In this document: positions 1,692-57,658 of the stretch, piece by piece
How positions within the stretch are numbered: position 1 is the stretch's first letter
Layout of the letters: each line of letters starts with the position of its first letter
Assembly: GCA_949358305.1 (NCBI GenBank)
Contig: OX442314.1
Location: 5,518,001-5,582,000 of the forward strand
Source of the DNA: Strigamia acuminata
Lineage: Eukaryota
Direction: 5' to 3'
DNA length: 64,000 nucleotides
The notes under the pieces: model-generated
Told to the model about the DNA's origin: nothing
The model's database searches: none
What the model saw: only the letters and a program-made list of their open reading frames with translations
Program-made: the position numbers and the translations under genes

Positions 1692-2322
1692 TGTGGTGAT
1701 TCAGCATCACCTGAAGAAGTAATTAGCGGTGATTATTGTGTTACTAATACTCGCCACTAGAGCGCGCTAGAAATACCGACTAGACTGACTAGTCGCGTGT
1801 TTCTGCGAACCTGCATAATCAGAAGGATTTGCATATGACGTCATTTCCGGTTAATATATATAGCCAATGCTTGACCGGAAACGACACTACAGTTACCACA
1901 TTTCAGCAAGAGCACCATTTACCTCACCTTTCAGGCCGTTTCACGGATTGATCGAGGACCGGTGCCCGCTGACCATTTCAACTGTACAACAGCCACATTT
2001 ATTTAGCGTAGCCAATCTACGCTAGAATAAATATTCGAACGATATTCGTTTAATTCGCACGAGAAAGCGAATTCTCGCGTGTTCATAATAACACGTGGAA
2101 ATACCCTAGACAACAAACATAGACCACGCGTAGGACTAAACAATTGGATCCGCCATTGTTTAGCGGCAACTCGTATTCGCAGCCGAATCCGAGGACCAAC
2201 ACAGGAAACATCTTGACTTATATTTGTATTAGTAAGCGTGTTTTAATAAAGCAGTATTTGAAATATATTGTATTCCCGAGTGTATTATTTATTATCTTTA
2301 ACCACAAAGTCGAATCACGACA
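1692..2322 (+). repeat. E1 5' LTR
   Basis: Direct repeat of 12823-13453. Contains octamer ATTTGCAT (1827), CRE TGACGTCA (1836), a TATA-like box (~1856) and AATAAA (~2245). Confidence 0.97.
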
Positions 2323-2324
2323 CG

Positions 2325-2342
2325 TGGGGGCCTGTCCGGGAT
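2325..2342 (+). promoter_or_regulatory. E1 primer-binding site, tRNA-Pro-like
   Basis: TGGGGGCCTGTCCGGGAT, 2 nt after the LTR; 16/18 match to the canonical tRNA-Pro PBS TGGGGGCTCGTCCGGGAT. Confidence 0.85.
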
Positions 2343-2414
2343 AGATTTGCTAACCTTAAGACAATACTTTAAATAATAACCGGGATCTTTCGATCGATCA
2401 TTATATCGTAAGAA

Positions 2415-5261
2415 ATGACAAAAACTACCGCAGAAGATAGAAAAAGGCGTAACGACGAAAAGGATAGAAAAGAAGCCGAAGAAATCGAACGCCAAAAAGC
2501 GGAAGAAGCGAACCACGTGGAACCAGAAGTCGAGACTAACTCGACTAAAGTTTCAACGGAATCATCAAGTGAAAGCCTTCCCCTTGCAAGACAACTTCCG
2601 TTTACGGGAGGCGAATTCGAAGGATCAGGAAGCTCTCACGAAGAAAACGGACTAAATAAATCGTTCGAAAACCCTCGATTCGGATTGAAAAGCCCAAGAC
2701 CAGTCGAAAAGGATCCCAGTGAAATGGATCTAATGACTCTTCTAAATAAAGCGGCAAACACAAGTGCCGCAATTATCAACGAGGCTGCCCGCGCAGACCA
2801 AGCAAGAACAGTCGCGTTAGAGAAGAAGAAAAACGAATTGATGGAAGATTTAGCCAGAGAGCATCGCGAGAAATTAGCTGCCATGGAACAGAGCTTGGCA
2901 CAAGAACACCAAGCTAAACAAATGGCACTGGAGCGCGAGCTGGCTCGAGAATTGCTCGCGAAGCAGAAAATAATCGAACGAGAAATGGCAAAGGACTGCC
3001 AGATCCGGCCGCCAAGCAACGGGTTAAGCCAGCATTCGGAGCCAAACTCCGTACAGAGCTCCCCAGAACGGTCTCACACAGCTAAGGAGCTGGTAGCCAA
3101 AGCAATAGAAGTAACTCGGGTAGCTTGCGCACACGGCATCGAGATCGACCAGGACAAGGATCCCTACGCAGAGCTAAGCCGAGTAATCGACCTAGTAAAT
3201 CAGAGGACTGAAAAACGATCGGCAGATAACACGGCCAGACGCGGAGAGAAACGACGTCGGGTCGGAGCAGATCGACAACAGTCCGAGACAGGCGGCGAAG
3301 CAACGTCAGACAGCGAAAGTATCGACTCTCAAGCATCTCACGGCAGTATCCGAGTCAACGGACTAGATAGCATCTTGAACGAATCGGACGAAGTCAAAGG
3401 AGAACTGTACGAGGCGTTTATACAGGATAGGAGGAATAATCAGGGCGCACAATCATGGGCAGTAAAAAACTCATTCGCAATGAAAACTGGCCAAACCAGT
3501 AATAACAACCCAGGCGACCCTAACGCAGAGCTAATCAGATGTATAAATCAGAAGAATCAAATACGCAACGAAGTAGGTCAAAATAAACTGGCCATGCCGA
3601 CGCTCGAGGAGATTAACGCAGTTAAAAATCACCTCGAAAAGAAACACGCCGCCGAAGCGTATGCTGGGAGAGATTCCTACGTTTTTATCAAAAAAACGAA
3701 CGAAGGCCTCACGGGGACCCGACTGGACGATCTGATACCGCCCGGAACAAAGTTGAGCCAAACCTCCGCTCCAGAGAAAGCGAACCCAGATAACTCAACC
3801 ATAGCGCAAGACCTCACGAATAACCCGAACACCGCGGGATCATCAGGGAAAACGTCGTTCCAACACAATCAGTTCGGACTGACGGGCAACGGTACGCATT
3901 ACCCAAGCCTCCCTTCCGACAATCCACGATCATCACCGCTGCTTAGTGAGACTGACTCGCTAAGCAACCAACTACGGACGATGAAAGACGAACTCCTTCA
4001 GGCCATGGACCAAAAACTTCAACAAAGCCGTGGCCAAGAGACCGAGGAGGACGATCGAAGCGAAGGATTGTTGAAACGTTACTCCGCAGACCGATGGCTG
4101 TATTCTCGCAAGGATAACAACATCAAGTGGACGACCCTGAGACTAATTAAGTTCGACGGATCCTGGAACGCCGGCAACTTGTTTTTGGACGAAGTCGCCC
4201 TGACGATTAATCGCTTAGGAGCGGAACCCGACGAAATGGTTGCACGCGGAATACCAGAAATGCTGATCAACCGGGCCCGAAACTGGTACGCTGATGTCCA
4301 ACCCCGAAACTGGGAAGATTTCGTCATAAAGTTCCACAATCAATATGGCGAGACGAGCCAAGAAATCCAGAAAAGAGTAAGCTCTATGAAGCAAGCTCCC
4401 GGGGAAACTCTGAGGGAATACGTACAACGAGCCGACAGCCTGTTCCGTGAAATGGACAAACCATTTGACCAACACGCTCAGAAAGCTCTCTTCGAACAAG
4501 GACTAAACGAAACCGCAACCAAAGTCCTACGAGAAATGAACGCTCCTAAAGGGGATAATTTCAAAGCCATCCTAGCTTTCGTCGAGAAGAAACACACCGA
4601 AGTAAATGCTCGGTATAACGAAAATCTGACAAAAGAAGAGCGAGCTCTAGGAGTGGCCCGACAGCAACGAATACAGGAGCGCAGCATAGACTCCACTAAG
4701 CTGCTCCAATCGCGAAATTATCTAAACGGAAGTATAGAGCCACTCCCCTCAAAGAAAAACCAACAAGCTTCTAACCCTTTACCACCTCCGAATAAGGCCT
4801 ATCGCACGCAAACTAACGCCGCCGAGGAAAAGTCGGAAGACGAAGTAAGCGAAGACTCTGAGCAATTCTCGGAAAGCGATGAGGCTGACGAAGGTATCAA
4901 CGATGTGGTACACGCAAACATGGGGAAGGAACTGGCGCCCAGCTACCGACCTCAGATGAAGTCCAGAAAATCGGAACACCACAACCCGAAAACAGAGGCG
5001 ACTTCCGAGAAGAAGGACTACCCCAAAAAACCTTTTGAGCGGGAGGGAAAGAAGAAAAGCCCTTGTAATTTCTGTAACGAAGACGGCCACTGGCGTCAGG
5101 CCTGCCCAAAACTGGCAAAGAAAAAAGCCGACGACAAGGCCGCAGAGCGTGAGGAGCTAGTGAAATTGCTCGCGAAGGAACAAGAAAAAATCTTGAAGGA
5201 ACTCACCGCCAAATTCGACAGTATGACAAAAAACTGGAACTCGCGGGCGGAACAAAAGTGA
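2415..5261 (+). CDS. gag: E1 Gag (948 aa)
   Basis: Coiled-coil N-terminus, retrotransposon capsid-like region (MKQAPGETLREYVQR), CCHC knuckle CNFCNEDGHWRQAC. Confidence 0.92.
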   Translation: MTKTTAEDRKRRNDEKDRKEAEEIERQKAEEANHVEPEVETNSTKVSTESSSESLPLARQLPFTGGEFEGSGSSHEENGLNKSFENPRFGLKSPRPVEKDPSEMDLMTLLNKAANTSAAIINEAARADQARTVALEKKKNELMEDLAREHREKLAAMEQSLAQEHQAKQMALERELARELLAKQKIIEREMAKDCQIRPPSNGLSQHSEPNSVQSSPERSHTAKELVAKAIEVTRVACAHGIEIDQDKDPYAELSRVIDLVNQRTEKRSADNTARRGEKRRRVGADRQQSETGGEATSDSESIDSQASHGSIRVNGLDSILNESDEVKGELYEAFIQDRRNNQGAQSWAVKNSFAMKTGQTSNNNPGDPNAELIRCINQKNQIRNEVGQNKLAMPTLEEINAVKNHLEKKHAAEAYAGRDSYVFIKKTNEGLTGTRLDDLIPPGTKLSQTSAPEKANPDNSTIAQDLTNNPNTAGSSGKTSFQHNQFGLTGNGTHYPSLPSDNPRSSPLLSETDSLSNQLRTMKDELLQAMDQKLQQSRGQETEEDDRSEGLLKRYSADRWLYSRKDNNIKWTTLRLIKFDGSWNAGNLFLDEVALTINRLGAEPDEMVARGIPEMLINRARNWYADVQPRNWEDFVIKFHNQYGETSQEIQKRVSSMKQAPGETLREYVQRADSLFREMDKPFDQHAQKALFEQGLNETATKVLREMNAPKGDNFKAILAFVEKKHTEVNARYNENLTKEERALGVARQQRIQERSIDSTKLLQSRNYLNGSIEPLPSKKNQQASNPLPPPNKAYRTQTNAAEEKSEDEVSEDSEQFSESDEADEGINDVVHANMGKELAPSYRPQMKSRKSEHHNPKTEATSEKKDYPKKPFEREGKKKSPCNFCNEDGHWRQACPKLAKKKADDKAAEREELVKLLAKEQEKILKELTAKFDSMTKNWNSRAEQK

Positions 5262-8200
5262 TTCCACATCCGCTCGCGATAACTTCGAAAACGATGGACC
5301 TTACACTGGTGGAAAAACAAATTAAAGAAATGAAAAAATTGTTGGAATTCTTCGAGGAAGCTGCCAACGAGGAAGTCACAACTCCAACCAAAAAACGGAA
5401 ATTCGAAATTAGAGACGAAGACGGTATAGCCAACGCTTTCATGACTTTGCCGCTTGACCAAGGGGCCAATCCTCTTAAAAAGCGAATACTTCGTTGCAAC
5501 CTATCAACAGAAGCGAAGAGCGTACTGGCTAAAATACCAGTCTCTTTCGGCAAAAAGGTGTTAATGGGACTACTCGACTCGGGAGCGGATCAGTCGTTTA
5601 TCTCCACCGACTTATTCGAATCACTCGAAGAAAAAATACAGAAAAAATTACGGGGAATGAACGAGAATATTCGAGTTCTTACAGCAGCGGGAGAAGTTAG
5701 AGCAGTGGGGACGTTATCAACCGATTTTGTATGGGAAGGAGGCACGATTAAGCATTTCTTCATCGTGTTACCAACCCGAGACACAATCCTGCTGATAGGA
5801 ATGGATTTGATGGAACGGATGAACATCCAGCCCAACCCAGTCACACGTTCGTGGAATTACATCGACAACCACGAGGACCCACGACTACCCATAATACCTC
5901 CGGAACTCCTAGACAAAGCTAAGGACGACGAGGAATGGGGAGGAGGCGAAATTAAGAAGTTCATCCAAGACTATAATTTTAAGTCGTTTAATACTATCCT
6001 CCAAGAGGAGAATTTAATACATAATCTGGCCATGGACGCCAATCTTGGAGAAGAACAAACGAAACTCCTCGAGGAAATGCTCAAGAAGCACTCGAAGAAC
6101 TTAAATAAAGATCCAGGAAAGACTAGTTACGTAATGCACGAGATCGAATTGGTTACGGGAAAACCGGTGCGAGTACCTTTTAAAACTATGAATCCCCAAA
6201 AGAGACATATCGTAAGAACGATGTGCAACGAGTTGCTCGAAAAAGGGATCGTGTCGCACGCCATCGGAGAATATGGAATGAGGATTGTCCTCGTCATGCG
6301 ACCAGGCTCCGAACCGCGCCTCTGCATCGATTATAGACCTTTAAACGCCATAACCGTCATCGACCCCATCCAAATGCCGTCAATAGAAGCGATTCTACGG
6401 GAGCTCGCCCCATTTAACTGGGTCACGACCATGGACTTGTCCAAGGGTTACTGGCAGGTTGAATTGCGGGAAGAGGATAAAGAGAAAACAGCTTTTTGGG
6501 CACCACAGGGTCGACTGATGTTTAATGTAATGCCCTTCGGGTTAGTAAACGCACCCGCCACCTTTCAAAAACTAATAGAAAAAGTTCTCGGCGATGCCTT
6601 ACACAAATACGCATGGGCTTACCTCGATGATATAGTCATAGTCTCCCAAACTTTTGAAGATCACCTGATACACGTGAATGACGTCATGGAGCGACTCACA
6701 AAAGCCGGTCTAAACATTCATCCAGGGAAAAGTAAATTTTGCCGCAAAGAATTGGCATTCCTGGGTTACACAGTCGGAACAGGTGGCCTATCCATCGACC
6801 CGAAAAAGACCCAGGCGATTAGCCAGTTCCCCGCCCCGGAAGATGTAAAAGGAGTCCAACGTTTCATGGGCATGGTGAATTTCTTCAATCGATTGCTCCC
6901 AAATTTGGCAGACGTCGCGGCGCCCATCACAGATCTGTTACGCAACGATAAAGATTTCGAGTGGACTGACCACTGCGAAACATCGTTTAACAAAATAAAA
7001 CAAATGCTGATCGATGTAAAACGAATTCCCCTACCAGATCTTAATCGAGAATTCACTCTTCACACCGACGCCAGTCGAATTGGCCTAGGTGCTGCGTTGC
7101 TTCAAAAGCATGACATCGACGGAGTAGTGTTAGAGGTCCCGACGATGTTCATCAGCCGGAAATTACAAGCAGCCGAAAAGAATTATAATGCGACAGAGTT
7201 AGAATGTCTAGCCGTCGTCTGGGCAATCCGAAAATTCAGACCATACCTGGAATTTACCAAGTTCAACGTACAAACTGACCACGAAGCACTAAAGTGGTTA
7301 ATGGCGTTGAAGGAACCGTCCGGAAGAATGGCTCGCTGGCAGCTAGAATTAATGGCTTGTGACTTAATCATTGAATACCGACCCGGAAAATTCAACGTCG
7401 TGGCAGACGCCCTCTCACGAGCCCCAGCTTCAGACCCCGAAGACGAGACCGACTGCGGAGAGGACGACTCACGCCTCTTCTACTGTCCGAACCCCGTCCG
7501 AAAATGGGAATTTAAAAAGCTAAACGAATTACCCAAGGAGAAACTCGAGTCAGGAGACCAGAATTATTACAGTTATTGGCTCCGAGCGTACCAGTCGGTC
7601 AAGGACGCTCACCCAAATTATGAGCTAACAATAGAACCTCGAATCTCCGACAAGTACGTTCGAGCATTCGTCGCCCACGTAAGCAAGGGGACGAATAGCA
7701 AACCGCCCACCAGGGACGAATTAATAGCCGCCCAGATGGCAGACGACTTCTGTAAAACTTATCGAGACTTCATCACAGATAAAATATTTCCCGACGAGAA
7801 TTTCGACGAAATCCAACGTGAAGAATTCGAAAGAGAAGCCTCCACGTACTTAATCGAGGATGGACTTCTACTAAAACACCACCCGAATTTCCGCGATGAT
7901 CTGACGGAGACAGGAACTTCGATGAAAGTCGTTATACCCAGGAGTCTGCTGACAAGGTTTCTGTGGATGGTCCACGGACACCCGCTCGCCGGACATTCTG
8001 GAGTGGCCAGAACGATCTACCGAGCAAATCAACTTTATTTCTGGCCAAAAATGACCCGAGATATTGTTCGTTTTATTCATCACTGCCCCAGATGCCAAGC
8101 GTGCAAGCCGAGGACGCCCAAGAACTACGAGAGAATCTCACTTGGCCCTTTCGCACCCTTCGATTGCTGGAGCGTGGATTTAATGGGCCCAAAACCCACG

Positions 8201-9340
8201 TCATCCAATAAAAACAAATATATATTAGTAATCATGGATGTCGCGACTGGATGGCCCGAACTCTTTCCAATGGAGAGACCAACTAAGCAAAAAATCATTC
8301 GATGTTTGTACGAAGTGGCGCTTCATTTTGGATTCCCTCGAAAATTAATCTCCGATAATGGACCACAATTCGCGTCAAATTTGTATAAAGACTTCTGTAA
8401 AAAATTCGACATCGAGACATCATATACATCAACCTATAATCCACGGGCCAATCCCGTCGAAAGGTTAAATCGCGATATAAAATATGCACTAGCAATTTTC
8501 ACCGATGTTCACTCCAGCTGGGACGAATATCTTCGTGAAATTGCCTTCAGCATCCGCACAACGATCTCAAGGAACCGCAAATTTTCTCCCGCGTTTCTAA
8601 ACTTCGCTCGGGAACTCAGAGTACCCTGGGACCCACGAATACCGGAGGAAATACTGGAAATTGATCCTGAGAAGCCTCATATTTATGTCGACAGACTGGA
8701 GCAAATAATTTCGGCCACTTATCAGCACATGATGTCACACATATTCGACATGAGAGATCGTATTAGCATTGCTGGAAAGGATCGGCCCTTCTGCAATTTT
8801 AAAGTCAATGACCTCGTCTGGAAAGACACACATATTCAGTCCAGCGCCGATAAGGGGATCCACGCAGGCTTAGCAGACAAACGCGACGGCCCGTACGTCA
8901 TACTCGAAGCCCACGGCGGAAACGCTTTCAAGCTAAAAAGATTGGCAGATAACGTTAATTTTAGATCGATCCACGCCCGAGAATTAACTCCATACTTACC
9001 TGAGTTTCCTCAAGAGGCTTGGACGGAATATCAGACGAAACCAGCGAAAAATCCAATTATTCGCGACATGTTTTTAGATGAACAAACTGGCCCAACCAAT
9101 TTAGTTCAAGATGAGTTACTCGAAGTGGCCGACGCCCCGGATGAGATTTCGGGGAGGGAGGAAATAGTCGCAGAATCTCCTAAAAAAGGAAAGCAATCAA
9201 ACAAAAAGAAGACTACAGGAATCCCCAAACCTGATAAAATATACGGTATGCGCCGACACAAGCCAAACCCGTTCATAAAAGACGGGAAACTCGTCGGAAA
9301 ACAAAAAGCGACTCCGGCCATTGTCTCAAACAATCGATAA
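5228..9340 (+). CDS. pol: E1 Pol (PR-RT-RNaseH-IN), likely via -1 frameshift
   Basis: LLDSGA protease, YLDD RT, TDAS/ELECLAVVWA RNase H, HHCC + DDE integrase, GPY motif. Frame is -1 to gag and open from the A AAA AAC site at 5228-5234. Confidence 0.95.
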   Translation, partial: KKLELAGGTKVIPHPLAITSKTMDLTLVEKQIKEMKKLLEFFEEAANEEVTTPTKKRKFEIRDEDGIANAFMTLPLDQGANPLKKRILRCNLSTEAKSVLAKIPVSFGKKVLMGLLDSGADQSFISTDLFESLEEKIQKKLRGMNENIRVLTAAGEVRAVGTLSTDFVWEGGTIKHFFIVLPTRDTILLIGMDLMERMNIQPNPVTRSWNYIDNHEDPRLPIIPPELLDKAKDDEEWGGGEIKKFIQDYNFKSFNTILQEENLIHNLAMDANLGEEQTKLLEEMLKKHSKNLNKDPGKTSYVMHEIELVTGKPVRVPFKTMNPQKRHIVRTMCNELLEKGIVSHAIGEYGMRIVLVMRPGSEPRLCIDYRPLNAITVIDPIQMPSIEAILRELAPFNWVTTMDLSKGYWQVELREEDKEKTAFWAPQGRLMFNVMPFGLVNAPATFQKLIEKVLGDALHKYAWAYLDDIVIVSQTFEDHLIHVNDVMERLTKAGLNIHPGKSKFCRKELAFLGYTVGTGGLSIDPKKTQAISQFPAPEDVKGVQRFMGMVNFFNRLLPNLADVAAPITDLLRNDKDFEWTDHCETSFNKIKQMLIDVKRIPLPDLNREFTLHTDASRIGLGAALLQKHDIDGVVLEVPTMFISRKLQAAEKNYNATELECLAVVWAIRKFRPYLEFTKFNVQTDHEALKWLMALKEPSGRMARWQLELMACDLIIEYRPGKFNVVADALSRAPASDPEDETDCGEDDSRLFYCPNPVRKWEFKKLNELPKEKLESGDQNYYSYWLRAYQSVKDAHPNYELTIEPRISDKYVRAFVAHVSKGTNSKPPTRDELIAAQMADDFCKTYRDFITDKIFPDENFDEIQREEFEREASTYLIEDGLLLKHHPNFRDDLTETGTSMKVVIPRSLLTRFLWMVHGHPLAGHSGVARTIYRANQLYFWPKMTRDIVRFIHHCPRCQACKPRTPKNYERISLGPFAPFDCWSVDLMGPKPTSSNKNKYILVIMDVATGWPELFPMERPTKQKIIRCLYEVALHFGFPRKLISDNGPQFASNLYKDFCKKFDIETSYTSTYNPRANPVERLNRDIKYALAIFTDVHSSWDEYLREIAFSIRTTISRNRKFSPAFLNFARELRVPWDPRIPEEILEIDPEKPHIYVDRLEQIISATYQHMMSHIFDMRDRISIAGKDRPFCNFKVNDLVWKDTHIQSSADKGIHAGLADKRDGPYVILEAHGGNAFKLKRLADNVNFRSIHARELTPYLPEFPQEAWTEYQTKPAKNPIIRDMFLDEQTGPTNLVQDELLEVADAPDEISGREEIVAESPKKGKQSNKKKTTGIPKPDKIYGMRRHKPNPFIKDGKLVGKQKATPAIVSNNR

Positions 9341-9518
9341 AAACAACCACAGGGGGGACACCTGTTACGTCCCACAATGCGTCTTAATTGGCCAAACCAA
9401 TCAAAGATGACATGAGACTAATAGTTAACCTCTAACCCGACCCACACTTATCACTGTCATCTCCGACTAAGCAACGATCACCTCGAGACAGCCGTGAAAT
9501 CAAATTAGTTTCCGAAAA

Positions 9519-12500
9519 ATGAGAAATGATTGGAAGAAAGAAATTGAACGGGCCGTAAACAACGCTTCCGAGGATGACGATGAAGATCAAGTGGATTTGT
9601 TACAAATCATTGTAAACAACGAAGAGGGAAATTGGGACGAACCCAATGAACCCGATGTCCAACCCGACGTAAGTAAAAAATAGAAAAAATTCAATTATCG
9701 ATAATCAAAAATACGAAATAAGTTCGTGGACTGACCACAAACGAAGAAATAATTTAACTTTAAGTGACAAATTATCAAAATTAATCAAATACCGAAAGAA
9801 AAATTAACTTCAAGACACGTGGTCGAAAAGCACATGGCCGACCATGACGCCATCTTGTGTTAGACGAAAGAATCTCTACAAAAATATGACAAATTAATCA
9901 ACGATCCTAATATATTTATTAATATTCTAATATTTAGGACGGATATCGCACTACGTGGGGGCAAATCGACCCGAAAAGAGTTTCCGCAGGCAGCTTATGG
10001 CGCGAAGTAATCCCCATACTGTTCCGACAAGCGCTCGAAGAAGCGGTCGACTTTGAACCATGGAAAATTCGCCTTTTATTGTCCCGTGCGATCAGCCGCT
10101 ACTGGTCCAGCCAGCAAACGTTGATCCACTACATGCCGCGCCAATATCAAGCAGCTTTACGGGCAGTTATCTCGAGAAATATGGACCCGCCAGCGCCAAT
10201 CCCGAATCCACTAATCCGAGCCGCCTTTCCTGACGACCAGCGAGGATGGGACGTTTACGAACAATGGCGCGACGCCGAAACAGATGAAGAAAAACACCAG
10301 ATTCATATGGCATATTACGAAGAAGTAAGGCGGACCGCACATGACGAGGTTTTCAATTATCTACAGCCGGACGGTTACTCGACCGAGGAAATCAGGTTTT
10401 GGCTCCTTCAGATCCGCGAAGACCGGCCCGACCGCCCAGATTGGAGACCGAGACACGGTTTCATCACCTCGCAACGAGCAATGCATCAATTGCATTTTTT
10501 GGGCTTCTTTGGTCGCAAACGCCAGAAGGCCGAGAAACGTCTCTCCAACGAGCACGACGAAGCAGGCTGCTCAGCGAAGAAACCATGCCTGGACAAGCCA
10601 AGCACTTCCAGCAGCGCGCAGAATAAGAAACCCGCGACAGAGAAACGCCTGGCCAAACCAAGCGCTCTCTCTCGCCTGGGAAAGACGGAGATCCCACAAA
10701 CATCGCGATTTCAATCCAGGGATGCCCCGTCAACCAGCCGAAGAAGAGAAAATGTACGCGAACGCCCCGACCGCCGAGAAGATCAACGCCGACGCGATAG
10801 GAACCAAGAAAATTGGGACGATTATCGTAGAAATTACTTCCGACGGCGGGAAGAAAACAAGGAATCCTGGAATAGACACCGAGAGGAGTTCCTGCGCGAA
10901 CGTGATGAAAGAGCCCGACGTGAACGAGAGAACCTCCGTCTACAAGACGAACGAAGAAGGAGAGGATCGGAGAGTCGCGCACGTTCATGGAAAGCGTATC
11001 GTGAAGAAGAAATTCGACAGCGAGATAGGAGGCGCTGCGAAGATACACGATCAATTCGGGACAGTCCCGAACCAATGAAGATCGACGATGAGGTAATTAT
11101 CGACGAGGTCCCCGAGCAAAAGAAGATGTATACTCAGGCGGACCTCCTCGCGGTAGTTATGCAATACCAACAAATGCAGCCGAAACCAGTCTACCGCCCG
11201 ACTCCCTCGACCGCCTCGAGTCTAGAGACGGCGCCAAGTGCTTTCATCAAGCCGGAACTCTCGCAGACGAGAAGCGTAACATCCAGCGTCAGCCTCCCAA
11301 GCGCCTTTCGCAAGAAAGTGATAATCGGCGCACCGACACTGAGTTCTGAAGAACAACTCAGACATCGAGAAGCTCGCTTTGGACCGGCCAAAGTCGAACC
11401 TCTCCCAACTATCCCCGAAGCCTCAACTTCAACGAGAACTCCAATCGTTTGGGACAAGCCCGAACCGGAAAAATCAAGACGTCTGGTCAGATCTGTGCCT
11501 CAGCCAACGACATCCACGGGACCCAATCCGATGTTGCCAGCCCCAGCAGTCATCCAAGCCTCGACTCCAATCAACCCTTCGGAGGTAACGTTGCAACAGT
11601 TTCTGGAGGTAACGACCGTGGAGCAAGCTAGAGCGCTGTTGTGCGAGATGGACTCCTACCAACAAAACGTGATCCAAAACGTCATCACGAACCTTCAGCG
11701 GATCTCGATTGAATATACGCAGAACAAAAATCGGGATCATCCAAATTGGAATACGAGGATCGTGGTTGCCATTACCGACTTGATGTCGATTTTGCTGGCC
11801 GCCGCCACCTTCCGAAACGCACGTGTTGCTGTGGCAGCCTGGATCGTGGTGGCCCACGAGGGTTTCCAAGTCCCGCCGGCTCTCGTAGACAGCTGGACCC
11901 GCCTAGTGCCCTCTGCGGCAGTAATTCGAGCCCAAATGGTGGCCCAGGACCCGGATCCAGAGACCTCCTATCAGAACGTTCGAGCGATCATCCAACACCC
12001 ACGCCCGTCGTCTTCAGTGACCACACCCGTCGTGGAAACTCCGGCTCCCAGGGATCCGACGCCTCCTCCTCCGCCTCCGCCGAAGGAAAATAGACCTTCC
12101 GAACCACTGGCCGAACCAGTCTCGCTCAAAAAGAAGGAAACAAAAGGAAAATTGCTCCGCCCAAAATCGAGCATGAAAGCTTCAAAGACGGCCGAACCTC
12201 AGATCGCCGCCAGACTCCGGATGTACTTCCCGGGGTTGTCCTTGACGAAGGATACTGAAACAAAATTACTCCAAACCCCAGACCGTGGCTATTCTCTTTA
12301 TGTCTGGATGAAGAACGCTATCGAAGCTGGAGCCGGAGGCGATCGCTTCATCCAGCATCAACGACTACTCCGAGCCCATCGCGCGCCAACCAGCATTGCC
12401 GAGGCCCAAAGAATCCATCACACCAATCAGGGAATGTCGCCCTTTTTGCCGCCAATTTGGGCCCACGAACGAACGGGGAATCCGCTGGAAGCACCAGGTC

Positions 12501-12628
12501 ACTTACGTTTCTACTTGAACGAGAGCGAAGACCCCTCGGACTACTCTTCAAAATTGACCACATCTCCCAACCTGGACGAACCAAGTTCGGAAGATAAGCC
12601 AAGTTACGCCGATAACTTGAAGAAATAA
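9519..12628 (+). CDS. E1 spliced third ORF, unknown function (~946 aa; exons 9519-9668 and 9938-12628)
   Basis: ATG at 9519 opens 50 codons ending at a GTAAGT donor. A 269-nt AT-rich intron ends TTTAG at 9937 and joins the long ORF in frame. Homologous to E2 ORF3. Confidence 0.75.
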
Positions 12629-12822
12629 TTAATTACATATTCATAACGAGAAGACTGTCTTCTCTAAAAAACCCTGAAATTATTTATGTATCAATTTCAA
12701 GAATGTAAAATATTTTGTTCATCATTCATCATTATTTAATAAAAAGATTATTTATGATTAAAGATACTGCTCCACCTTTATTTAAAGGGGGGGCCCCGAT
12801 GATTTATTCTCGGGGAGGGACG

Positions 12823-13453
12823 TGTGGTGATTCAGCATCACCTGAAGAAGTAATTAGCGGTGATTATTGTGTTACTAATACTCGCCACTAGAGCGCGCTA
12901 GAAATACCGACTAGACTGACTAGTCGCGTGTTTCTGCGAACCTGCATAATCAGAAGGATTTGCATATGACGTCATTTCCGGTTAATATATATAGCCAATG
13001 CTTGACCGGAAACGACACTACAGTTACCACATTTCAGCAAGAGCACCATTTACCTCACCTTTCAGGCCGTTTCACGGATTGATCGAGGACCGGTGCCCGC
13101 TGACCATTTCAACTGTACAACAGCCACATTTATTTAGCGTAGCCAATCTACGCTAGAATAAATATTCGAACGATATTCGTTTAATTCGCACGAGAAAGCG
13201 AATTCTCGCGTGTTCATAATAACACGTGGAAATACCCTAGACAACAAACATAGACCACGCGTAGGACTAAACAATTGGATCCGCCATTGTTTAGCGGCAA
13301 CTCGTATTCGCAGCCGAATCCGAGGACCAACACAGGAAACATCTTGACTTATATTTGTATTAGTAAGCGTGTTTTAATAAAGCAGTATTTGAAATATATT
13401 GTATTCCCGAGTGTATTATTTATTATCTTTAACCACAAAGTCGAATCACGACA
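12823..13453 (+). repeat. E1 3' LTR
   Basis: Follows the PPT; copy of 1692-2322. Confidence 0.97.
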
Positions 13454-14812: not shown

Positions 14813-14829
14813 GGAGGGATCCGAATATA

Positions 14830-15610: not shown

Positions 15611-15619
15611 TTTTGTATC

Positions 15620-33118: not shown

Positions 33119-35168
33119 TAGTAATAATTTAGTATGCTTACTAGGTACGGAGCTAGTGGGCACACGTCAGCATACGTGTTTTCAATATTTACGGTCAATA
33201 ATTTCCGAACAAATGATTTGCTAGAAGCTTTAGCTATACCAATAAATGATATAGGTTATCAAGCAAGTTAGAAGACATATGTTTTTTGTTTATAGTTACA
33301 AAATTGGAATGTTGAGCAGGTCCCATACGAGGTGTCAGTTTCCGTGAGAACAACTGATTTGTTTGAAAATCCCTAAACAAATCAGGTCTTTTAATTTTTA
33401 AAAAAAACTTTCATTTTTTTTACCTTTATTTTGATGCCAACTATCTCTTCAGTCAAATTGGTCGCTTTCCAAAGTTCATCCATATTACAAGTTGGTATTT
33501 TTATCAGACTTTTCACCATATTTACACATTCATAGTTGGGTGAAAACAGATTATCCACAAGATTCGGATAAGTTTTATTCCAAAGCCTGGACATTTCTTT
33601 TGTGTTGCCACTGCAGATCATCAAGCGTGGTAACACAATCTCTTCCGATTTGGTCGTTACATCAACAGTTGTAGGATAACTTAAGTAATACATTACTCTG
33701 TTGTATGTTTGGTAAGTGAGCATGCATGTGCAAAACACGAGCAAAAATAGCCAAAATGCATGACGCCTGCTGAAATGTTTTCTACTGTTTACGAAATCGT
33801 CCAGACCAATTAAACTGCATTTTGGTTTATTGGCATCATCTTTTACCATGCGTTGAATTGCAGGACGTAGTTTTGCTAATCTCCGCACATTTCTTCTCAT
33901 TAAGTAATTTGCCTGCATTATATTTCAGTAAATGGGACCAGAGCAGACTTCAATGTTTCTGTCATCAGTGGTACTTGCCACTTTAGGCTTGGACAAATTA
34001 TTTTTTAAACCTAACTGGTCTTTACAACTTGAGAGCTTGTTTGTTTGGTGTTGTATCCTTGAAAAAACAAGGCAACTACGCTCTTTATTTGTCGTTAAAT
34101 TCAGAATTGATCCGTGTTTTTATTACCTAGAAACACCGCATGTAAAACCCATAAAATTATACAAGCAGCAAAAATATTGACACAATTTTCATTGATTTAG
34201 AAATTAGAAGTTAAGTGTTTGACCGTTGTAAAAACGTACAGTACGCAATTCACCATCAGATGGCTCTGTTTGATTAGACGCGGCTAAGTTTAAACGAGTT
34301 AAAGGAATTATAAATTAATTCTAAGTATATATAAATAAATATGTTTATTTTTGTAAGAATGCCGAATCACTATATGACATTGGGTCAGTAACAGCTCACA
34401 ACTGCTCTCTGTTCTGCCCTTTTATTGCTTTGCTGCTTAATGATATACAGGTCGTCCTTGGGCTGAATAATCAATCGAGATTATTCTAGCCACGAATCAT
34501 ATCCACCGATAGGATCCGAAACCACCGATTATTAAAGGAGTTGTGACATAAAAATTTTTTTTTGTAATAATTGTAAAAAATGATTAAGTATTGTTAAACA
34601 AAATGTTTCTCAATTTTTTATAATTTTAAGTGTTATTTTTTTACTATAAACTAGAATTAAAAATGCTAAGCCCCGCCCCCTCTGAAAAACTCCAAGAAAC
34701 CGGAAATGACGTCATAGGCAGAACAGATTTCAATAGCTGCATACAGAAAAAACCAAAAAATTCAATATTGCGTCTAAAAAATAAAAAAGAATCGTATAAT
34801 TTTTTGTGTGATTGATGAAGCTTCTGTAATCTTCAGAAAGTTTTATACTCTATAATAGATTGATTTTTAATTTTTTAAATAGATTTTTTAAAAAAAAATT
34901 TGACATTTTTTTTCAATTTGTTGGTTTTATTTACTCCGTATTTAATTTTCTTCAAATCAATCACAAAATGTACTTCCAAGTTTTAGCATTAGGTTTTGTG
35001 TGCATTTTTTCAACAATTGTGTGTTTTTATTTCTGTGTGACGTCTTACAGATGTCATTCCAAACACTGTCATTGGTGGACACACCTTAAATGACGTCATC
35101 GGCAGAATTTTATTGTTTCCCTGATTTTGAAGCAAGGCAGTAAAGCGCAAAGGGCAATCCCTTAAATT

Positions 35169-36132
35169 TGTGGTGATCTCAATGTATTTCACCAACTTAG
35201 AAGATAAAATTAATTGTCTTCTAATTAATTTGACTGTGGCACACGCCAAGTCAGATCATGTGACCGAGGGGAGAAATCCTCTCTAGGCACATATCACCCC
35301 AGGTTGTCCGGGGTGAAGACGGTTATTAGCCGTTATGGTGCAATATGGTGTAATAACCACTAGTTGCACCCATTTGAGCTAAGTGCGCAGGTTTTCTGCG
35401 CAATATTGAAGCGTGCTGGGCTCGCGCCTTGGCTCAAATCGGGACTCTTGACAAAAATACACACACCACAACATCACTGCTTGTTCGCTCCTGAAAAGTA
35501 TTGATAGTGGACCATGTATTCCAAGTTTCACCAGCTTGCTTTGTAAAACATACAAAGCCAGCTATCCTGCTTGAATTAGCCGCAGCTAATTCCAGCAATC
35601 GTAACGAGAAGTAGAAGTTTCCCGACGATCGTGAACCATCGCCGTCGCTGTCGCGCGAACGTCAGCCACCGCCATCGAACGAGAGCCGGACGCCTGCCCC
35701 GTGAACCACCGCCGCCGAGCCGTCGTACGAGGACAGAAGAAACCCACGAGAACCATCGTCTCCGACCATCGTTCGTGAGTTTGCAAAACGAAGACATTTG
35801 CCTTCGCTCAACAACATTGTGTTGTTTAAGCGCCATTTCTGACGCTTTGTAGCTTGCAACAGTCGTTGCAAGCCCTTCCATTGTTCCCGCTCATTTTACT
35901 TCGCGACTTGTCGCATTCTGTGATATTTCCATCATTATTAATATATATTGTATTTAAAATCGAATAAATATATTGTGTCATTTTTATACTATAAACTGTC
36001 TTTTTATTCCTTTTCCTTAAACTTAACCCCTAGATAATTTAAGGCCGCCGATTGTAAGTCTTGAAAAGCATTCACCTGCGGTTTCAGGCTTATTAATTAG
36101 TAATAAGTCTGATATTAACCCGGATCGCAGCA
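35169..36132 (+). repeat. E2 5' LTR (964 bp)
   Basis: TG...CA ends; matches 57659-58197 with 4 substitutions, and the solo LTR. Confidence 0.95.
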
Positions 36133-48690: not shown

Positions 48691-51600
48691 AAAAAACTTG
48701 TAGACGCAGATCCATCAGGTCTAGTGGACGCTGCGTCACCTCCGAAATCGGAATCAGAGAATGAAAATCTGAAAATATTGGATGAAATCGAAACTACAAT
48801 CAATGAACTAATTCAGCAAATTGAATTAGAAGAATCTCTAGAATTAAAAAAGGAGATTGTCGGCGAAACTCCGACTAACAATGATTCCAATATTCAAGAT
48901 AAAGTCGAAATTAAAGAAGATAGACCAAGCTCAGTTCCAGAGACACCTGGAATTGAGGAATGCATTAAGTTATTTGCAACTACAACTCTTGATACCAATG
49001 AGTTATTGGACGAACTGCCTTTGGAGCCTCCAATTACAGTTCCTCATAAATTGCGCAAGTTTGAGTGCAAAGTGGCTGGAATTCCCAACAGCCAAGACCT
49101 TCCAACGCTCAAATTAGAAACGTTAAAAGGTGTAATAACTGGTATGTTGGACTCAGGAGCAAATAAGAGCTTCCTAGCCACTTCAGTTATTAATCAATTA
49201 GGTCTAGAAGAATATCTACGACCTATCGGACCTGGTGTCAGAGTCACGACGGCAAGTGAAGAAGTCACTCCAGATGGAACTATCCATCTTTCATTTCGAT
49301 GGACACATGGCACGTTACGCCATCCGTTCATCGTAATACCAAATAAGTATCCAATGGTACTATTGGGTTGCGATTTTATGAATAAATTGAAAATCCAACC
49401 TAATCCACAGACGATGTCTTGGAATTTCACGAAACCTGTGGATGCAGATTTACCCTACATTCCACAAGCGTTGCTGGATCGTTATTTGGAGAAAATAGAG
49501 GAACCCGATTCCTCATTTGTGACCTTTGCAAAAGCTTACGCTGCGAGTGTAACTCAAGGCAAAATTGATGAAGAGAATTTCATCCAAAAGTTAGTCGAAG
49601 AAGCTAACTTAAATTTGGAGCAATCCAAATTATTAGAAAAAATGTTATCCAAACATAAAAGGATTATTTCTAAAGATCCAGGTAAAACACACCTGGTTAA
49701 GCACAAAATTGAGCTTGACACGGATAAACCCATACGTGTCCCCTTTAAGAGCATAAACCCTCAAAAAAGGGAAATAATCAGACAACTTTGTCAAGACATG
49801 ATTGACAAAGGCGTGGTCGTCAAAGCTGATGGCGATTACGGATGCGGCCAGTCCTAGTCATGCGACCAGGAAACGACCCACGTCTGTGTATTGATTTTCG
49901 CCCCATCAATACACATACTAAGTACAACCCACCTCAAATGCCAACAATTGAGGAAATTCTGCGAGAAATCGGAGAATTCGAATGGGTCAGTACTATAGAT
50001 CTGACCAAGGGATATTGGCAGATAGAATTGCGACCTGAAGACAGAGAAAAAACTGCCTTCTGGAGCCCAATGGGAAGACTAATGTTTTTAGTAATGCCTT
50101 TCGGATTAGTAAACGCACCAACTACTTTCCAAGAACTGATGGAAAAAGTTTTGGGTGACGTTTACAGAAAATTTGCATGGGCATATTTGGATGACATAAT
50201 TGTTGTATCCAAATCGTTCGATGAACACATTAAACATTTAGATATAGTGTTTAAAAAATTGGCAGAAGCTAATTTACATGCGCATCCTGGCAAGACGCAT
50301 CTCTGTAGAAAGGAATTAATTTTTCTAGGCTACAAAGTAGGAGTCGAAGGACTTGCAGTTGACCCTAAAAAAGTCGCTGCAATTACGCAATTTCCGGCTC
50401 CTACCAATCTTAAGGAATTGCAAAGATTTCTAGGCATGGTGAATTTCTTTCACCGCCTAATCAAGAATTTGGCCACGGTTGCAGAACCACTAAGGCCTCT
50501 CTTGAAGAAAGATGCGGAGTTCGATTGGGAACTGCATCATCAGGCAGCATTCGACGCCATAAAAGACTTACTTACGAATGCTGAAACAATGAAGATGCCC
50601 GACTTGTACATGCCATTCATTGTTCATACTGACGCCAGTAGACAAGGGTTGGGTGCAGCCCTTACACAAAAGAAGATTGTGGATGGCCAAGAAGTCGAAA
50701 TGCCATGCGTGTATGCAAGCAGAAGCTTGCAGCTCGCAGAGAAAAATTATACTGTGACAGAATTGGAATGTCTCGCAGTAGTATGGGGATTACGCAAATT
50801 TCGCCCATACTTAGAGTACACTACATTCACTGTACAAACGGATCACCAAGCCTTAAAATGGTTGATGTCGTTATCTGACCCGTCGGGCAGATTAGCTCGT
50901 TGGCAAATGGAGCTGATGGCGTATTCGTTCGAAATACAATACGTCAAAGGTCCGCTAAATGTAATAGCAGACGCATTGTCACGTGCACCTGTCAGCGCAC
51001 CTGACGAACCAGAAGACGATGGCGATAATGATGATTTATTATCATATTGTCCATCTCCTTGCCGAAGTTGGCAAATGGGAAAATTGAACGAATTGCCCAA
51101 GTCGATAATAGTCAATGAAGATGATCAAGCATTAATTAATTTCTGTATTAATATGCATGATCCGTCAGGAACCCCTGACGTCGAATTAAGAGCTATGATG
51201 GCTAAAAAATTCGAGCTGCCAACAACAAATGTTTTAATTAAAGCATTTGCAGCTAAAATTGCTAAGCAATTAGAATGTGATCCTCCGACGAGAGATGACA
51301 TTATTGCAGCGCAAAAAGCAGACAAATTTTGCCAACATATTCGCAATTACTTGTTAAACAAGCAATATCCAAGTTACATAGTAACTCGTCTTCAAAGAAG
51401 AAATTTTGAAAGACACGCGAGTACTTATCTCATTGAAGAAGATATGTTGCTCCATTATCATCCTACCTCTACCGATGAATTAGGAGAGGATGGTAGGGCA
51501 CTTAAAGTTGTTGTGCCAAGAAAATTGATTTATAAAATCATTTGGTTGATGCACGGACATCCACTGTCCGGCCATCCAGGCATTGCGAGGACAATGTACA

Positions 51601-52940
51601 GAACTCGAAGAGTTTATACCTGGAAAGGTATGAAATGTGATATTACACGTTTTATTCAACATTGTCAAGGATGTCAGGCCTGTAAGCCCAGATCAAAGAC
51701 AGAAATAGAAGGCGCTCAATTAGGACCATTTGGACCATTTGACTGCCTCAGTGTGGATTTGTCTGGTCCCAAACCGAGAACCAGGAGAAACAATACCCAC
51801 ATTTGCGTCATCGTAGATGTCGCTACACATTGGCCCGAATTATTTCCAATGTGTAATCCCACGGCAATAAAAGTTGCCAACACAATTTATCACTTATCAA
51901 TGACTTTTGGATTTCCGAGACAAATTATAAGTGATAATGGACCACAATTTCGATCACAGGTCTATAAAGAATTTTGCAAAAAATTCAGTATGTCGCGAAC
52001 ACCGACATCGATTTATCATCCACAAAGCAATCCTGTGGAGAGAACCAATCGAGATATTAAATATTTAGTTTCGATTTATTTAGATATTCACGACCAATGG
52101 GATGAGTATCTACGCGAATTCGCATTCAGTTTAAAAACAACTGTAACAAGAGGCAGAGATTATTCTCCAGCTTTCTTAAATTTCTTTAAAGAATTAAGGA
52201 TTTCTTGGGATCCAAGAATTCCAGAAGGAATTTTGGTTATTGACCCAAAAAATCCGCATTTATATGTTCAAAAATTAGAAGCAATAATTGCAGAGACGTA
52301 TCAACATATGATGTCTCACGTCTTAGATTTGAGACGCCGTATCGAAGCTGAAAAATCAGACAAAAAATTCGATAATTTCAGACAGAATGATTTAGTCTGG
52401 CGAGAGTCTCATATTCTCTCAAATGCCGCTAAAGGAATAGCAGCAGGCATTTCACCGAAAAGGAATGGGCCTTATGTAATTGTCAAAAGGTTACAAGGAG
52501 GCGCCTTTCAACTTCGACGGCTGAGCGATAATAAAAATTATCCAGCCGTTCACGGCACCGAATTAACGCCGTACTTTCCCGTTTTCAACCAAGAAATTTG
52601 GCTGGAAGGGGAGGAAGTGGGTCAAAAAACAAAAAATATTGTTAATACCTTGGATGATGCTGAATTATCCAAAATTCCTGTCGAAAACACGGAATCGAGT
52701 GAAAAATCGAAACTCAAAAATAACGAAGTCGATGAAATAAACAAGCGACTTGAAAATGTTTCTCTTGATGAAAATCTAGAAAAGGAAATGTTTTTAGAAA
52801 AAGAAAAAATTTCAAACAATTCAGGAAATAACTCATCTGACATTGGAGACGATGCAGATGACAATCTAAACAAGTTGGATTGTACTTCGCGAAAGTCAAA
52901 GTACAACTTGAGATCTCGCGTTCCGCGAGCCAAGACATAG
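48691..52940 (+). pseudogene. pol: E2 pol with a 1-bp deletion at ~49842
   Basis: MLDSGA, YLDD, RNase H and integrase motifs. GGA-TGCGG lacks one A relative to the GGA ATG (G-M-R) of E1, splitting ORFs 48724-49857 and 49842-52940. Confidence 0.9.
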
Positions 52941-55337
52941 CGTTGACTTTCACCTTTTGGGTTTACCCAAAAAAGATCCGAGAGAGCAATCTCGTGACGT
53001 CATTCGTAGTCCACACTCGAATGACAACGTTCACAATGCGTTATAATTTGTGACGTCATTCGGTGTCACCGAAACAAGTTCGTTTCTCCAATCAACGAAC
53101 TTAGCCACTTTTCCGATAAGTTTTGAAGTGGATGCATCGACTCCGATACAGCACGACAGTTTTTCTTGATTCAACAAACTGTAAGTAGTTTTTCTGAAAG
53201 AAAAATTTGATAAATATATTTAATATAATTTATTAATTCTTTCTAGCCGAAAGAATTTCTTTTTCGACGCGAAAAAGAAGGAGAATGGCAGACGACCAAG
53301 TCAACCTCCATGCGGACGAAGAAATGCCGCTGGAAGGGGCCAACAACGAGGCCCAGCTAACGTTGCAAGAGAGGGTAAATTATTAAAATAAATTTTACCA
53401 AGTGTTTAAGTCAGAAAAATTGAATAATTTCACTTTTCCTGACTTCAAACACAAGCCGCTAAAAAATAAAAATGGCGGCTATAAAAGTCACGTGCTTCAA
53501 GCATGTGCGAAGGGAGTTGCCATGACAACCAACATCCCTTAGTGGCTCACGGCCACAAGCGCTAAGCTTAAAAAATATTTCAAATAAGAAATTATTTGTT
53601 TATTTTTAAAATAAACTAATTTATTTATTTTTTCTTCGAATATAGATCGAGAGAATTTTGCAAAAAATTCAGTATGTCGCGAACACCGACATCGATTTAT
53701 CATCCACAAAGCAATCCTGTGGAGAGAACCAATCGAGATATTAAATATTTAGTTTCGATTTATTTAGATATTCACGACCAATGGGATGAGTATCTACGCG
53801 AATTCGCATTCAGTTTAAAAACAACTGTAACAAGAGGCAGAGATTATTCTCCAGCTTTCTTAAATTTCTTTAAAGAATTAAGGATTTCTTGGGATCCAAG
53901 AATTCCAGAAGGAATTTTGGTTATTGACCCAAAAAATCCGCATTTATATGTTCAAAAATTAGAAGCAATAATTGCAGAGACGTATCAACATATGATGTCT
54001 CACGTCTTAGATTTGAGACGCCGTATCGAAGCTGAAAAATCAGACAAAAAATTCGATAATTTCAGACAGAATGATTTAGTCTGGCGAGAGTCTCATATTC
54101 TCTCAAATGCCGCTAAAGGAATAGCAGCAGGCATTTCACCGAAAAGGAATGGGCCTTATGTAATTGTCAAAAGGTTACAAGGAGGCGCCTTTCAACTTCG
54201 ACGGCTGAGCGATAATAAAAATTATCCAGCCGTTCACGGCACCGAATTAACGCCGTACTTTCCCGTTTTCAACCAAGAAATTTGGCTGGAAGGGGAGGAA
54301 GTGGGTCAAAAAACAAAAAATATTGTTAATACCTTGGATGATGCTGAATTATCCAAAATTCCTGTCGAAAACACGGAATCGAGTGAAAAATCGAAACTCA
54401 AAAATAACGAAGTCGATGAAATAAACAAGCGACTTGAAAATGTTTCTCTTGATGAAAATCTAGAAAAGGAAATGTTTTTAGAAAAAGAAAAAATTTCAAA
54501 CAATTCAGGAAATAACTCATCTGACATTGGAGACGATGCAGATGACAATCTAAACAAGTTGGATTGTACTTCGCGAAAGTCAAAGTACAACTTGAGATCT
54601 CGCGTTCCGCGAGCCAAGACATAGCGTTGACTTTCACCTTTTGGGTTTACCCAAAAAAGATCCGAGAGAGCAATCTCGTGACGTCATTCGTAGTCCACAC
54701 TCGAATGACAACGTTCACAATGCGTTATAATTTGTGACGTCATTCGGTGTCACCGAAACAAGTTCGTTTCTCCAATCAACGAACTTAGCCACTTTTCCGA
54801 TAAGTTTTGAAGTGGATGCATCGACTCCGATACAGCACGACAGTTTTTCTTGATTCAACAAACTGTAAGTAGTTTTTCTGAAAGAAAAATTTGATAAATA
54901 TATTTAATATAATTTATTAATTCTTTCTAGCCGAAAGAATTTCTTTTTCGACGCGAAAAAGAAGGAGAATGGCAGACGACCAAGTCAACCTCCATGCGGA
55001 CGAAGAAATGCCGCTGGAAGGGGCCAACAACGAGGCCCAGCTAACGTTGCAAGAGAGGGTAAATTATTAAAATAAATTTTACCAAGTGTTTAAGTCAGAA
55101 AAATTGAATAATTTCACTTTTCCTGACTTCAAACACAAGCCGCTAAAAAATAAAAATGGCGGCTATAAAAGTCACGTGCTTCAAGCATGTGCGAAGGGAG
55201 TTGCCATGACAACCAACATCCCTTAGTGGCTCACGGCCACAAGCGCTAAGCTTAAAAAATATTTCAAATAAGAAATTATTTGTTTATTTTTAAAATAAAC
55301 TAATTTATTTATTTTTTCTTCGAATATAGATCGAGAG
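51970..55337 (+). repeat. 1684-bp tandem duplication inside E2
   Basis: 51970-53653 matches 53654-55337 (integrase 3' half, ORF3 promoter region, first exons and introns); 2-bp AG microhomology at the junction. Confidence 0.92.
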
Positions 55338-57606: not shown

Positions 57607-57658
57607 ATTGGTTCGTTCATTTTCTCTCCATGTAAGATTCGTCTTAAATGGGGGGATG

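Follow-up and report, generated by a model that had tools for sequence, protein, structure and literature searches.

The DNA analysed here is a stretch of 64,000 nucleotides (nt) from Strigamia acuminata (assembly GCA_949358305.1, contig OX442314.1, positions 5,518,001 to 5,582,000 of the forward strand). It is called the window hereafter, and all coordinates refer to it. Two related Ty3/gypsy long terminal repeat (LTR) retrotransposons lie in the window, E1 (1692-13453) and its broken relative E2 (from 35166 to at least 58197). Both carry a third gene downstream of pol, termed here ORF3 (open reading frame 3), for which a short first and a long second coding exon are predicted. We tentatively read ORF3 as a selected accessory gene that is expressed from an intron-removed mRNA and whose product is likely a regulator in the nucleus, associated with RNA and acting on the element's transcripts, and not an envelope protein. 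Its parts in the two elements are the following.

9519..9668, + strand: E1 ORF3, predicted exon 1; ATG plus 49 codons, acidic, holds the motif EDQVDL
9669..9937, + strand: E1 ORF3, predicted intron; 269 nt from GTAAGT to TTTAG, rich in AT apart from a core at about 9805-9865 that is GC-rich
9938..12628, + strand: E1 ORF3, exon 2; 896 codons
54969..55058, + strand: E2 ORF3, predicted exon 1; ATG plus 29 codons, acidic, holds the motif DDQVNL
55059..55329, + strand: E2 ORF3, predicted intron; 271 nt, GTAAAT...ATATAG
55330..57606, + strand: E2 ORF3, exon 2; 758 codons, open

Exon-intron layout of ORF3

A sequence-only reading of the window had proposed this succession after pol, an acidic mini-exon, a phase-0 intron of 269 or 271 nt and a long exon, and the arrangement is indeed present in E1 and in E2. 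From the pol stop codon to the predicted first exon downstream, the distance is 178 nt in E1 and 344 nt in E2. The donor sites are GAC/GTAAGT at 9669 and AGG/GTAAAT at 55059, the acceptors are TTTAG/G at 9937/9938 and ATATAG/A at 55329/55330, and the junctions are in phase 0 in both elements. Each stop-to-stop frame of exon 2 starts right at the acceptor, whose TAG is itself an in-frame stop, and retention of the intron leads in both cases to a stop within five codons (after 4 codons in E1) and to a frameshift. The first in-frame methionine of exon 2 is found at residue 66 in E1 and at residue 239 in E2, in both cases 3' of an N-terminal block common to the two proteins, so that this block needs the start codon of the upstream exon. 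Only under the predicted two-exon arrangement does translation of the conserved N-terminus have a start codon, and splicing is proposed on this ground.

It could be argued that the frame is real and the exon model wrong, with translation beginning either within exon 2 or from a codon other than AUG, and with the mini-ORF being either coincidental or a regulatory upstream ORF. Indeed, the likeness between the two first exons amounts to a five-residue motif, and local alignment of the two introns does not rise above chance, 119 of 500 shuffled sequences scoring as well. Nevertheless, the two elements, whose non-coding DNA is unalignable, agree in intron phase, in nearly equal intron length, in consensus donors and in an acceptor placed at the opening of the frame. 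In both, the first methionine comes only after the shared N-terminal block, and the two variants listed upstream of Met66 among genomic copies of E1 (10003 and 10009) are both synonymous. An error of this kind in the exon model is thus quite unlikely in our estimation, and the predicted intron is probably real.

Homology of ORF3 between the two elements

Protein comparisons and searches were made with exon 2 as the query. The C-terminal domains of the two proteins are homologous (BLASTP E 2e-6, 27% identity over 116 amino acids; Smith-Waterman z 13.6, a score that none of 500 shuffles matched). The N-terminal ~200 residues, with the region from PILFRQALEE (PLIFRAALPE in E2) to GFF, are collinear with marginal similarity (z 3.9, 2/500 shuffles), and the block MDSYQ/LDAYQ is not above chance, 65 of 500 shuffles being as good. 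Four shared blocks had been listed from the letters alone; the C-terminal domain among them stands firmly and the N-terminal block marginally, and the MDSYQ/LDAYQ block is not significant. In both proteins, a run of prolines and then a basic cluster come just ahead of the conserved C-terminal domain. With 27% identity for ORF3 compared to 28% for gag, the gene has diverged about as fast as gag. A tblastn search of the window found no third copy of ORF3.

Selection among genomic copies of the E1 family

Variation among copies was read from contigs of three public runs (X1-X3) that behave like genomic DNA, with contigs of up to 29-47 kilobases (kb); a fourth run, X4, gave no contig piece on the element. 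The E1 family is very abundant in them, with 5216 (X1), 1832 and 446 contig pieces on 10.5 kb, and the depth over the pol-ORF3 spacer and the ORF3 intron is like that of their flanks. The figures for exon 2 refer to the best-supported 40 of 262 substitution sites. Codon position 3 holds 29 of these 40 variants, and 27 are synonymous against an expectation of 30% given the share of transitions (binomial p 1.2e-6); when the same variants are read in the other two frames, 3/40 and 7/40 are synonymous. The 13 replacements are mostly conservative, including four Arg to Lys, two Gln to Lys and Val/Ile swaps. Synonymous and replacement variants are distributed as 5:0 over residues 1-200, 8:11 over 201-540, 12:1 over 541-700 and 2:1 over 701-896, which gives 19:2 in the predicted folded parts versus 8:11 in the linker 201-540 (Fisher p 0.002). 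For comparison, the listed variants of gag give 12:1 (12/13 synonymous) and those of pol 15:5 (15/20 synonymous).

Exon 2, over its 2691 nt, has no listed indel. Between 2300 and 12800, each of the 9 listed indels falls before gag, in the spacer, in the intron (where 1-nt deletions occur at 9879 and 9880) or after the stop codon, or is in frame; the sole indel listed in exon 1 is an in-frame AAA after 9521. One divergent X3 copy loses its alignment just upstream of exon 2 and keeps the acceptor ...TTTTAG/GAC. The junction 9668^9938 is absent among the 13 joints listed in these contigs, that is, no intron-less DNA copy was seen, which suggests that the RNA that is reverse-transcribed keeps the ORF3 intron.

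Within the sampled variants, ORF3 of E1 is under purifying selection, comparable to that on gag and pol in its folded parts. The excess of synonymous changes and an exon 2 free of listed indels indicate a gene that does not evolve neutrally, in agreement with the conservation first read from the sequence, and ORF3 is very probably a real gene.

Features of the ORF3 protein and database searches

In E1, exon 2 encodes an N-terminal helical part (residues 1-200), an Arg/Glu-rich helix with a Ser/Thr/Pro-rich linker (201-540), a middle helical part (541-700), a Pro-rich and basic linker, and the conserved C-terminal domain (~760-875). Arg-rich tracts had been noticed in both proteins and described as very long in E1, which the counts corroborate: residues 251-400 of E1 contain 41 Arg together with 38 Asp/Glu, and the Arg/Ser-rich stretch of E2 is shorter, with 16 Arg in residues 201-300. 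Basic clusters are found in both proteins. AlphaFold2 models built from two-row alignments were all or mostly helical, with a mean predicted local distance difference test (pLDDT) score of 39.4 for the full E1 exon 2 and 46.5 for the C-terminal domain; the sole long confident stretch, a helix at residues 277-372 (pLDDT 79-93), coincides with the Arg/Glu-rich tract of E1. Arg-rich mixed-charge domains are reported to target proteins to nuclear speckles (bioRxiv 10.1101/771592), and the ORF3 protein is, by composition and models, arginine-rich and mostly helical or disordered, and it is probably nuclear.

Searches for relatives returned little. Pfam gave no match to ORF3 at E 0.01 nor at E 10, and the PDB profile search gave a single match with E 2.6. 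There were 0 phmmer matches to E1 exon 2 among 1.84 billion representatives, word-indexed searches with E1 residues 540-896 and E2 residues 1-758 were empty, and the ESM Atlas had nothing for E1 540-896 or E2. None of the pattern matches in metagenome contigs (327 with the ORF3 alignment, 591 with the pol alignment) or in viral contigs (69) was confirmed. Foldseek with the C-terminal model produced 0 matches at E 0.001 or better, a result that is uninformative at a mean pLDDT of 46.5. We use orphan here to mean that ORF3 has no relative in the libraries searched, which may be thin for the host's group.

An orphan, fast-evolving and lineage-restricted protein with long disordered regions is what an arms race predicts, and a factor that dampens silencing by the host, by way of small-RNA or chromatin pathways, would suit a family as abundant in its host as E1 (the 5216 X1 pieces above). 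However, the variation of ORF3 is mostly synonymous, the 40 sites contain no sign of positive selection, and the protein has no likeness to any known suppressor. Such a counter-defence role is therefore unlikely in our view.

ORF3 is not an envelope gene

The sequence-only reading had held that ORF3 lacks a signal peptide and a C-terminal transmembrane segment and is not Env, and this is borne out. No signal peptide is present, because both predicted first exons are acidic and hydrophilic; exon 2 has no hydrophobic N-terminus either. The Kyte-Doolittle maximum over 19 residues is 1.84 in E1, at 608-626, and 1.04 in E2, so that the hydrophobic segment of E1 is unconserved. The two proteins contain 4 and 6 Cys and a single N-x-S/T sequon each, and no match to F-type, gB-type or class I fusion proteins was obtained with Pfam at E 10 or with PDB profiles.

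ORF3 takes the env slot, with pol before it and the polypurine tract after it, and this position could still speak for a degenerate or unconventional envelope, or for a protein of cell-to-cell transmission, as could the hydrophobic segment of E1 and the fact that env-carrying Ty3/gypsy elements are described as widespread in animals (PMC13524379). Such a reading is very improbable, given the acidic N-termini, a hydrophobic segment confined to one of the two proteins, the few cysteines and sequons, the helical or disordered prediction and the absence of any Pfam or PDB sequence match. By its sequence features ORF3 is a non-Env third gene. It is conserved, under selection and common to two divergent elements of one pol clade (pol 56% identical).

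E1 and E2 belong to one Ty3/gypsy clade

The remaining parts of the two elements are as follows.

1692..2322, + strand: E1 5' LTR; 631 nt, starts TGTGGTGAT, exact repeat of 12823-13453, AACT flanking
2323..2345, + strand: E1 primer-binding site region CGTGGGGGCCTGTCCGGGATAGA, immediately 3' of the LTR
2415..5261, + strand: E1 gag; frame open 2412-5261 with the ATG at 2415, capsid-like domain and zinc knuckle in the C-terminal third
5153..9340, + strand: E1 pol; protease, reverse transcriptase, RNase H, then integrase, Pfam matches in Ty3/gypsy order
12808..12822, + strand: E1 polypurine tract; purine-rich, adjoins the 3' LTR, read from the sequence
12823..13453, + strand: E1 3' LTR; exact repeat of the 5' LTR
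35166..36131, + strand: E2 5' LTR; 35166-35707 matches 57656-58197, end placed from the primer-binding site at 36132-36155
49830..52940, + strand: E2 pol (reverse transcriptase, RNase H, integrase)
57656..58197, + strand: E2 3' LTR; likeness to the 5' LTR ends at 58197

Assignment to Ty3/gypsy (Metaviridae) follows from the direct LTRs and target duplication of E1, a gag with capsid-like domain and zinc knuckle, and the Pfam domain order protease, reverse transcriptase, RNase H, integrase, which is that of Ty3/gypsy in both elements. The two 631-nt LTRs of E1 are 100% identical and a 4-bp target duplication, AACT, stands on both flanks; since the gag, pol and ORF3 frames are all open, E1 looks intact and young. 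Its gag gives a Pfam match to Retrotrans_gag (5.4e-10, residues 615-700 of 949) and a match to zf-CCHC_2 below the cutoff. Ahead of the capsid-like domain this gag carries an N-terminal extension of ~600 residues (2412-4250), which is charged and cannot be aligned with E2. The primer-binding string CGTGGGGGCCTGTCCGGGATAGA recurs in E2 at 36132-36155 with one change, and we take it to resemble a tRNA-Pro primer site.

The pol proteins of E1 and E2 are 56% identical over 924 amino acids. When E1 pol residues 380-1100 were searched against a collection of 5.8 billion proteins, the closest pols among the at least 120 matches listed had no more than 47% identity and covered about half of the query. 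Identity between the gag proteins is 28% over 255 amino acids around the capsid-like domain. The LTRs had been described as dissimilar, and they are in fact unalignable, the observed score being reached by 122 of 200 shuffles; despite this they have the terminus TGTGGTGAT in common. On these sequence comparisons, E1 and E2 make up one distinct animal Ty3/gypsy clade.

E2 retains LTRs ~99% identical to each other over 542 nt, and it is damaged in three respects. A nested element interrupts its gag, with 100% identical repeats that begin at 37183 and at 44699, a distance of 7516 nt; the sole long ORF of this insertion (37183-46600) is on the minus strand at 39695-41200 and encodes 501 amino acids with no Pfam match. 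Its pol contains a 1684-nt tandem duplication, exact at 51968-52267 and 53652-53951, which gives rise to a second integrase-tail ORF at 53620-54624. Third, the likeness between its LTRs ends at 58197, next to a Ty1/copia element on the minus strand (58946-63889); the gag-pol of the latter is open and encodes 1647 amino acids with matches to RVT_2 (2.4e-55), Retrotran_gag_2 and rve.

The particle genes bear on a further explanation, in which ORF3 would be a particle-associated protein or partner of Gag, such as an assembly or nucleic-acid chaperone or an integration tether, working in the cytoplasm or on chromatin and not in RNA export. Its divergence matches that of gag (27% versus 28% identity), its basic and disordered tracts are like those of nucleocapsid-type proteins, its folded parts are strongly constrained, and the long N-terminal extension of E1 gag, with the capsid-like domain only at 615-700 of 949, points to an elaborate particle biology. 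However, neither a zinc knuckle nor a capsid-like or chromodomain match was found in ORF3, and a partnership with Gag seems to us improbable.

Introns, spacers and routes to the ORF3 mRNA

For the ORF3 intron of E2 the predicted RNA fold is very stable, at -76.9 kcal/mol with z -8.3 (none of 200 shuffles reached this stability), and is built of several near-perfect hairpins; the fold of the E1 intron has a z of -1.1. According to this model, the E2 intron could be a structured cis element, a source of small RNA or a tiny inserted inverted-repeat element. Both AT-rich introns have GC-rich cores (9805-9865 and 55150-55240) with the common motifs CACGTG, GCAYRTG, CCATGAC and GCCAT-type, and the E2 core additionally holds TATAAAAG. 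In 1000 shuffles, the chain of GC-rich 6-mers common to the introns (CACGTG...CCATGA) was matched 69 times, and the motifs stand in different order and orientation in the two elements. Likewise, the stretch from the ORF3 stop codon to the LTR is not similar above chance between E1 and E2 (54/500 shuffles as good).

The spacers between pol and ORF3 share one short block.

9373..9389, + strand: spacer block CACAATGCGTnnTAATT between E1 pol and ORF3; matches E2 54716-54732

This block of 17 nt is the best local match of the two spacers, and its score is reached by 12 of 500 dinucleotide shuffles. In both elements CACAATGCGTnnTAATT is followed by CCAATCAA. The E2 spacer also presents, at 54679-54742, two perfect TGACGTCA palindromes within a 13-nt direct repeat, which flank the block CACAATGCGTTATAATT common with E1 9373-9389. 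From its sequence, the spacer is a possible internal promoter or enhancer.

The ORF3 mRNA might be produced by either of two routes. In the first, a leader donor would be spliced, retrovirus-style, to an acceptor just 5' of the ORF3 ATG. Candidate leader donors are GTAAGA, 7 bases 5' of the E1 gag ATG (2408), and GTAAGT at 36052 in E2, and candidate acceptors lie upstream of the ORF3 ATGs near 9508 (E1) and 54931 (E2). In E2, the 5' untranslated part of ORF3 may hold a further intron of 66 nt (54866-54931, GTAAGT...TCTAG), or else the acceptor of this stretch could serve the long-range splice from the leader. In the second route, transcription would start from an internal promoter in the pol-ORF3 spacer, as the shared spacer block, a CCAAT-type motif in both elements and the TGACGTCA palindromes of E2 suggest. 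Transcription of the third genes of Tor elements from the 5' LTR and from an internal promoter are both described as documented (PMC4402516).

Surroundings of the elements

The window is AT-rich (33-40% GC) with GC-richer inserts. Its minus strand carries repeated copies of a DEG/ENaC channel gene (268-798, 22419-24422 and 31520-33924) in units ~9.5-22.5 kb apart, with Pfam ASC matches of E 1.9e-18 to 2.6e-11 in 4 of 10 ORFs scanned, and one of the units harbours E1 as an insertion. The channel family is known in animals, and on this ground the host is placed among them. An array of 11-nt tandem repeats occupies 26429-26960. Further transposon debris, at 28507-29025 and 14781-15727, comprises an ORF with a SWIM zinc finger (E 2.2e-4) and pieces of a copia-type reverse transcriptase (RVT_2 1.2e-48).

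Proposed function of ORF3

In the accessory-gene reading that we prefer, the private intron of ~270 nt would be removed from the mRNA that encodes ORF3, and the unspliced RNA would be the copy that gets reverse-transcribed. The Arg/Glu-rich tract and the basic clusters would bring the protein to the nucleus, and its target there would be element RNA, in the manner of CERV in Cer1 and of Rev in the human immunodeficiency virus (HIV). The nuclear RNA-handling role in itself is proposed by analogy and is rather doubtful. A stronger version, in which the clade would have built the logic of complex retroviruses independently, is unlikely: ORF3 would be made only after loss of the intron and would then bind intron-retaining full-length RNA and escort it out of the nucleus, the intron being both the sensor and the switch from regulator to genome production, and its GC-rich core, highly structured in E2, the response element.

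Function, which leans on the Arg-rich tract, is the weakest link of this explanation; in E1 no part of ORF3 is less constrained than this tract, with a ratio of synonymous to replacement variants of 0:4 at residues 267-375. The following points weigh against the proposed regulator as well. The same tract is much shorter in E2 than in E1, neither a clear nuclear export signal nor an RNA-binding domain was recognised in ORF3, and no fold supports any function, because the models are of low confidence. Splicing, transcription start and expression are predictions, the runs examined behaving like genomic DNA. The conservation of ORF3 rests on two elements and on variation within one family, since no homologue was found outside the window, and the 40 variants are not independent, several of them being linked on the same diverged contigs (e.g. 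11992-12028). Finally, the hydrophobic 19-mer of E1 exceeds the classical threshold of 1.6.

Significance

To our knowledge, third genes other than env are proving common among LTR retrotransposons, and CERV of Cer1 is the only one with a demonstrated job. ORF3 is, by its sequence, a non-env accessory gene of a Ty3/gypsy element and is predicted to be spliced; what is new is the protein family and the private intron. It represents a second case, unrelated to CERV: a large orphan under purifying selection in an abundant and apparently young family. A dedicated sense intron can be kept only if the RNA that retains it is the one that gets copied. If ORF3 does handle unspliced RNA, regulation of the Rev type would have arisen more than once outside retroviruses; if its role is another one, it defines a new family of retroelement proteins.

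Comparison with known systems

The coding sequences of Rev and Rex consist of a small exon followed by a larger one; the proteins have an arginine-rich tract and are made from spliced RNA in viruses that also need the unspliced RNA. ORF3 is similar to them in its Arg-rich tracts, in the combination of a small with a larger exon and in a protein predicted to come only from spliced RNA. Unlike Rev and Rex, it is 8-9 times larger and has folded domains of no recognised type, no response element or export signal was identified in its element, and its intron contains no env gene.

Among LTR elements of animals, the ORF3s of the bdelloid rotifer elements Juno, Vesta and TelKA are described as separate transcription units read from spliced messages, with domains of the GDSL esterase, DEDDy exonuclease, coiled-coil/membrane and paramyxovirus-type Env kinds; the main text of that report does not mention the word intron (PMC5408684). 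The gene described here is likewise a family-specific third gene after pol in animal LTR elements; in contrast to the rotifer genes as presented there, it matches no family. It occupies the same slot as the env genes of errantiviruses and of the Oikopleura Tor elements (PMC13524379, PMC4402516). Unlike these, which are described as membrane glycoproteins, it has neither a signal peptide nor a conserved anchor and is not rich in Cys or sequons. In the literature on extra ORFs and introns of Gypsy elements and on metazoan accessory ORFs we found no accessory gene in sense orientation that lies downstream of pol and has a short intron to itself, an absence that is not thereby proven.

The comparison with CERV of the Caenorhabditis elegans element Cer1 is one of descriptions and not of aligned sequences. 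The ORF in the env slot of Cer1 is described as large, not Env and without homologues outside Caenorhabditis; its product CERV, of 517 amino acids, is encoded by a five-exon mRNA whose first exons are common with gag and whose introns span gag-pol. CERV is nuclear and is needed for the export of the unspliced genomic RNA, the unspliced RNA being the genome, and its domains are termed H, M (which holds a Cys loop) and G (GTPase-like) (PMC10309623). As far as that account goes, ORF3 differs in three respects: its predicted exon 1 has its own ATG downstream of pol and is not common with gag, its intron is a small private stretch of ~270 nt without a coding role, and it has no Cys-rich loop, with 4 and 6 Cys in total. 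It resembles CERV in that it lies in the env slot, is not Env, is restricted to its lineage, diverges as fast as gag and is predicted to be read from a spliced mRNA. The idea of a complex retrotransposon is not new in kind, Cer1 as described in PMC10309623 being its precedent, and CERV is, by analogy, the nearest counterpart of ORF3 and the closest working model for what it may do.

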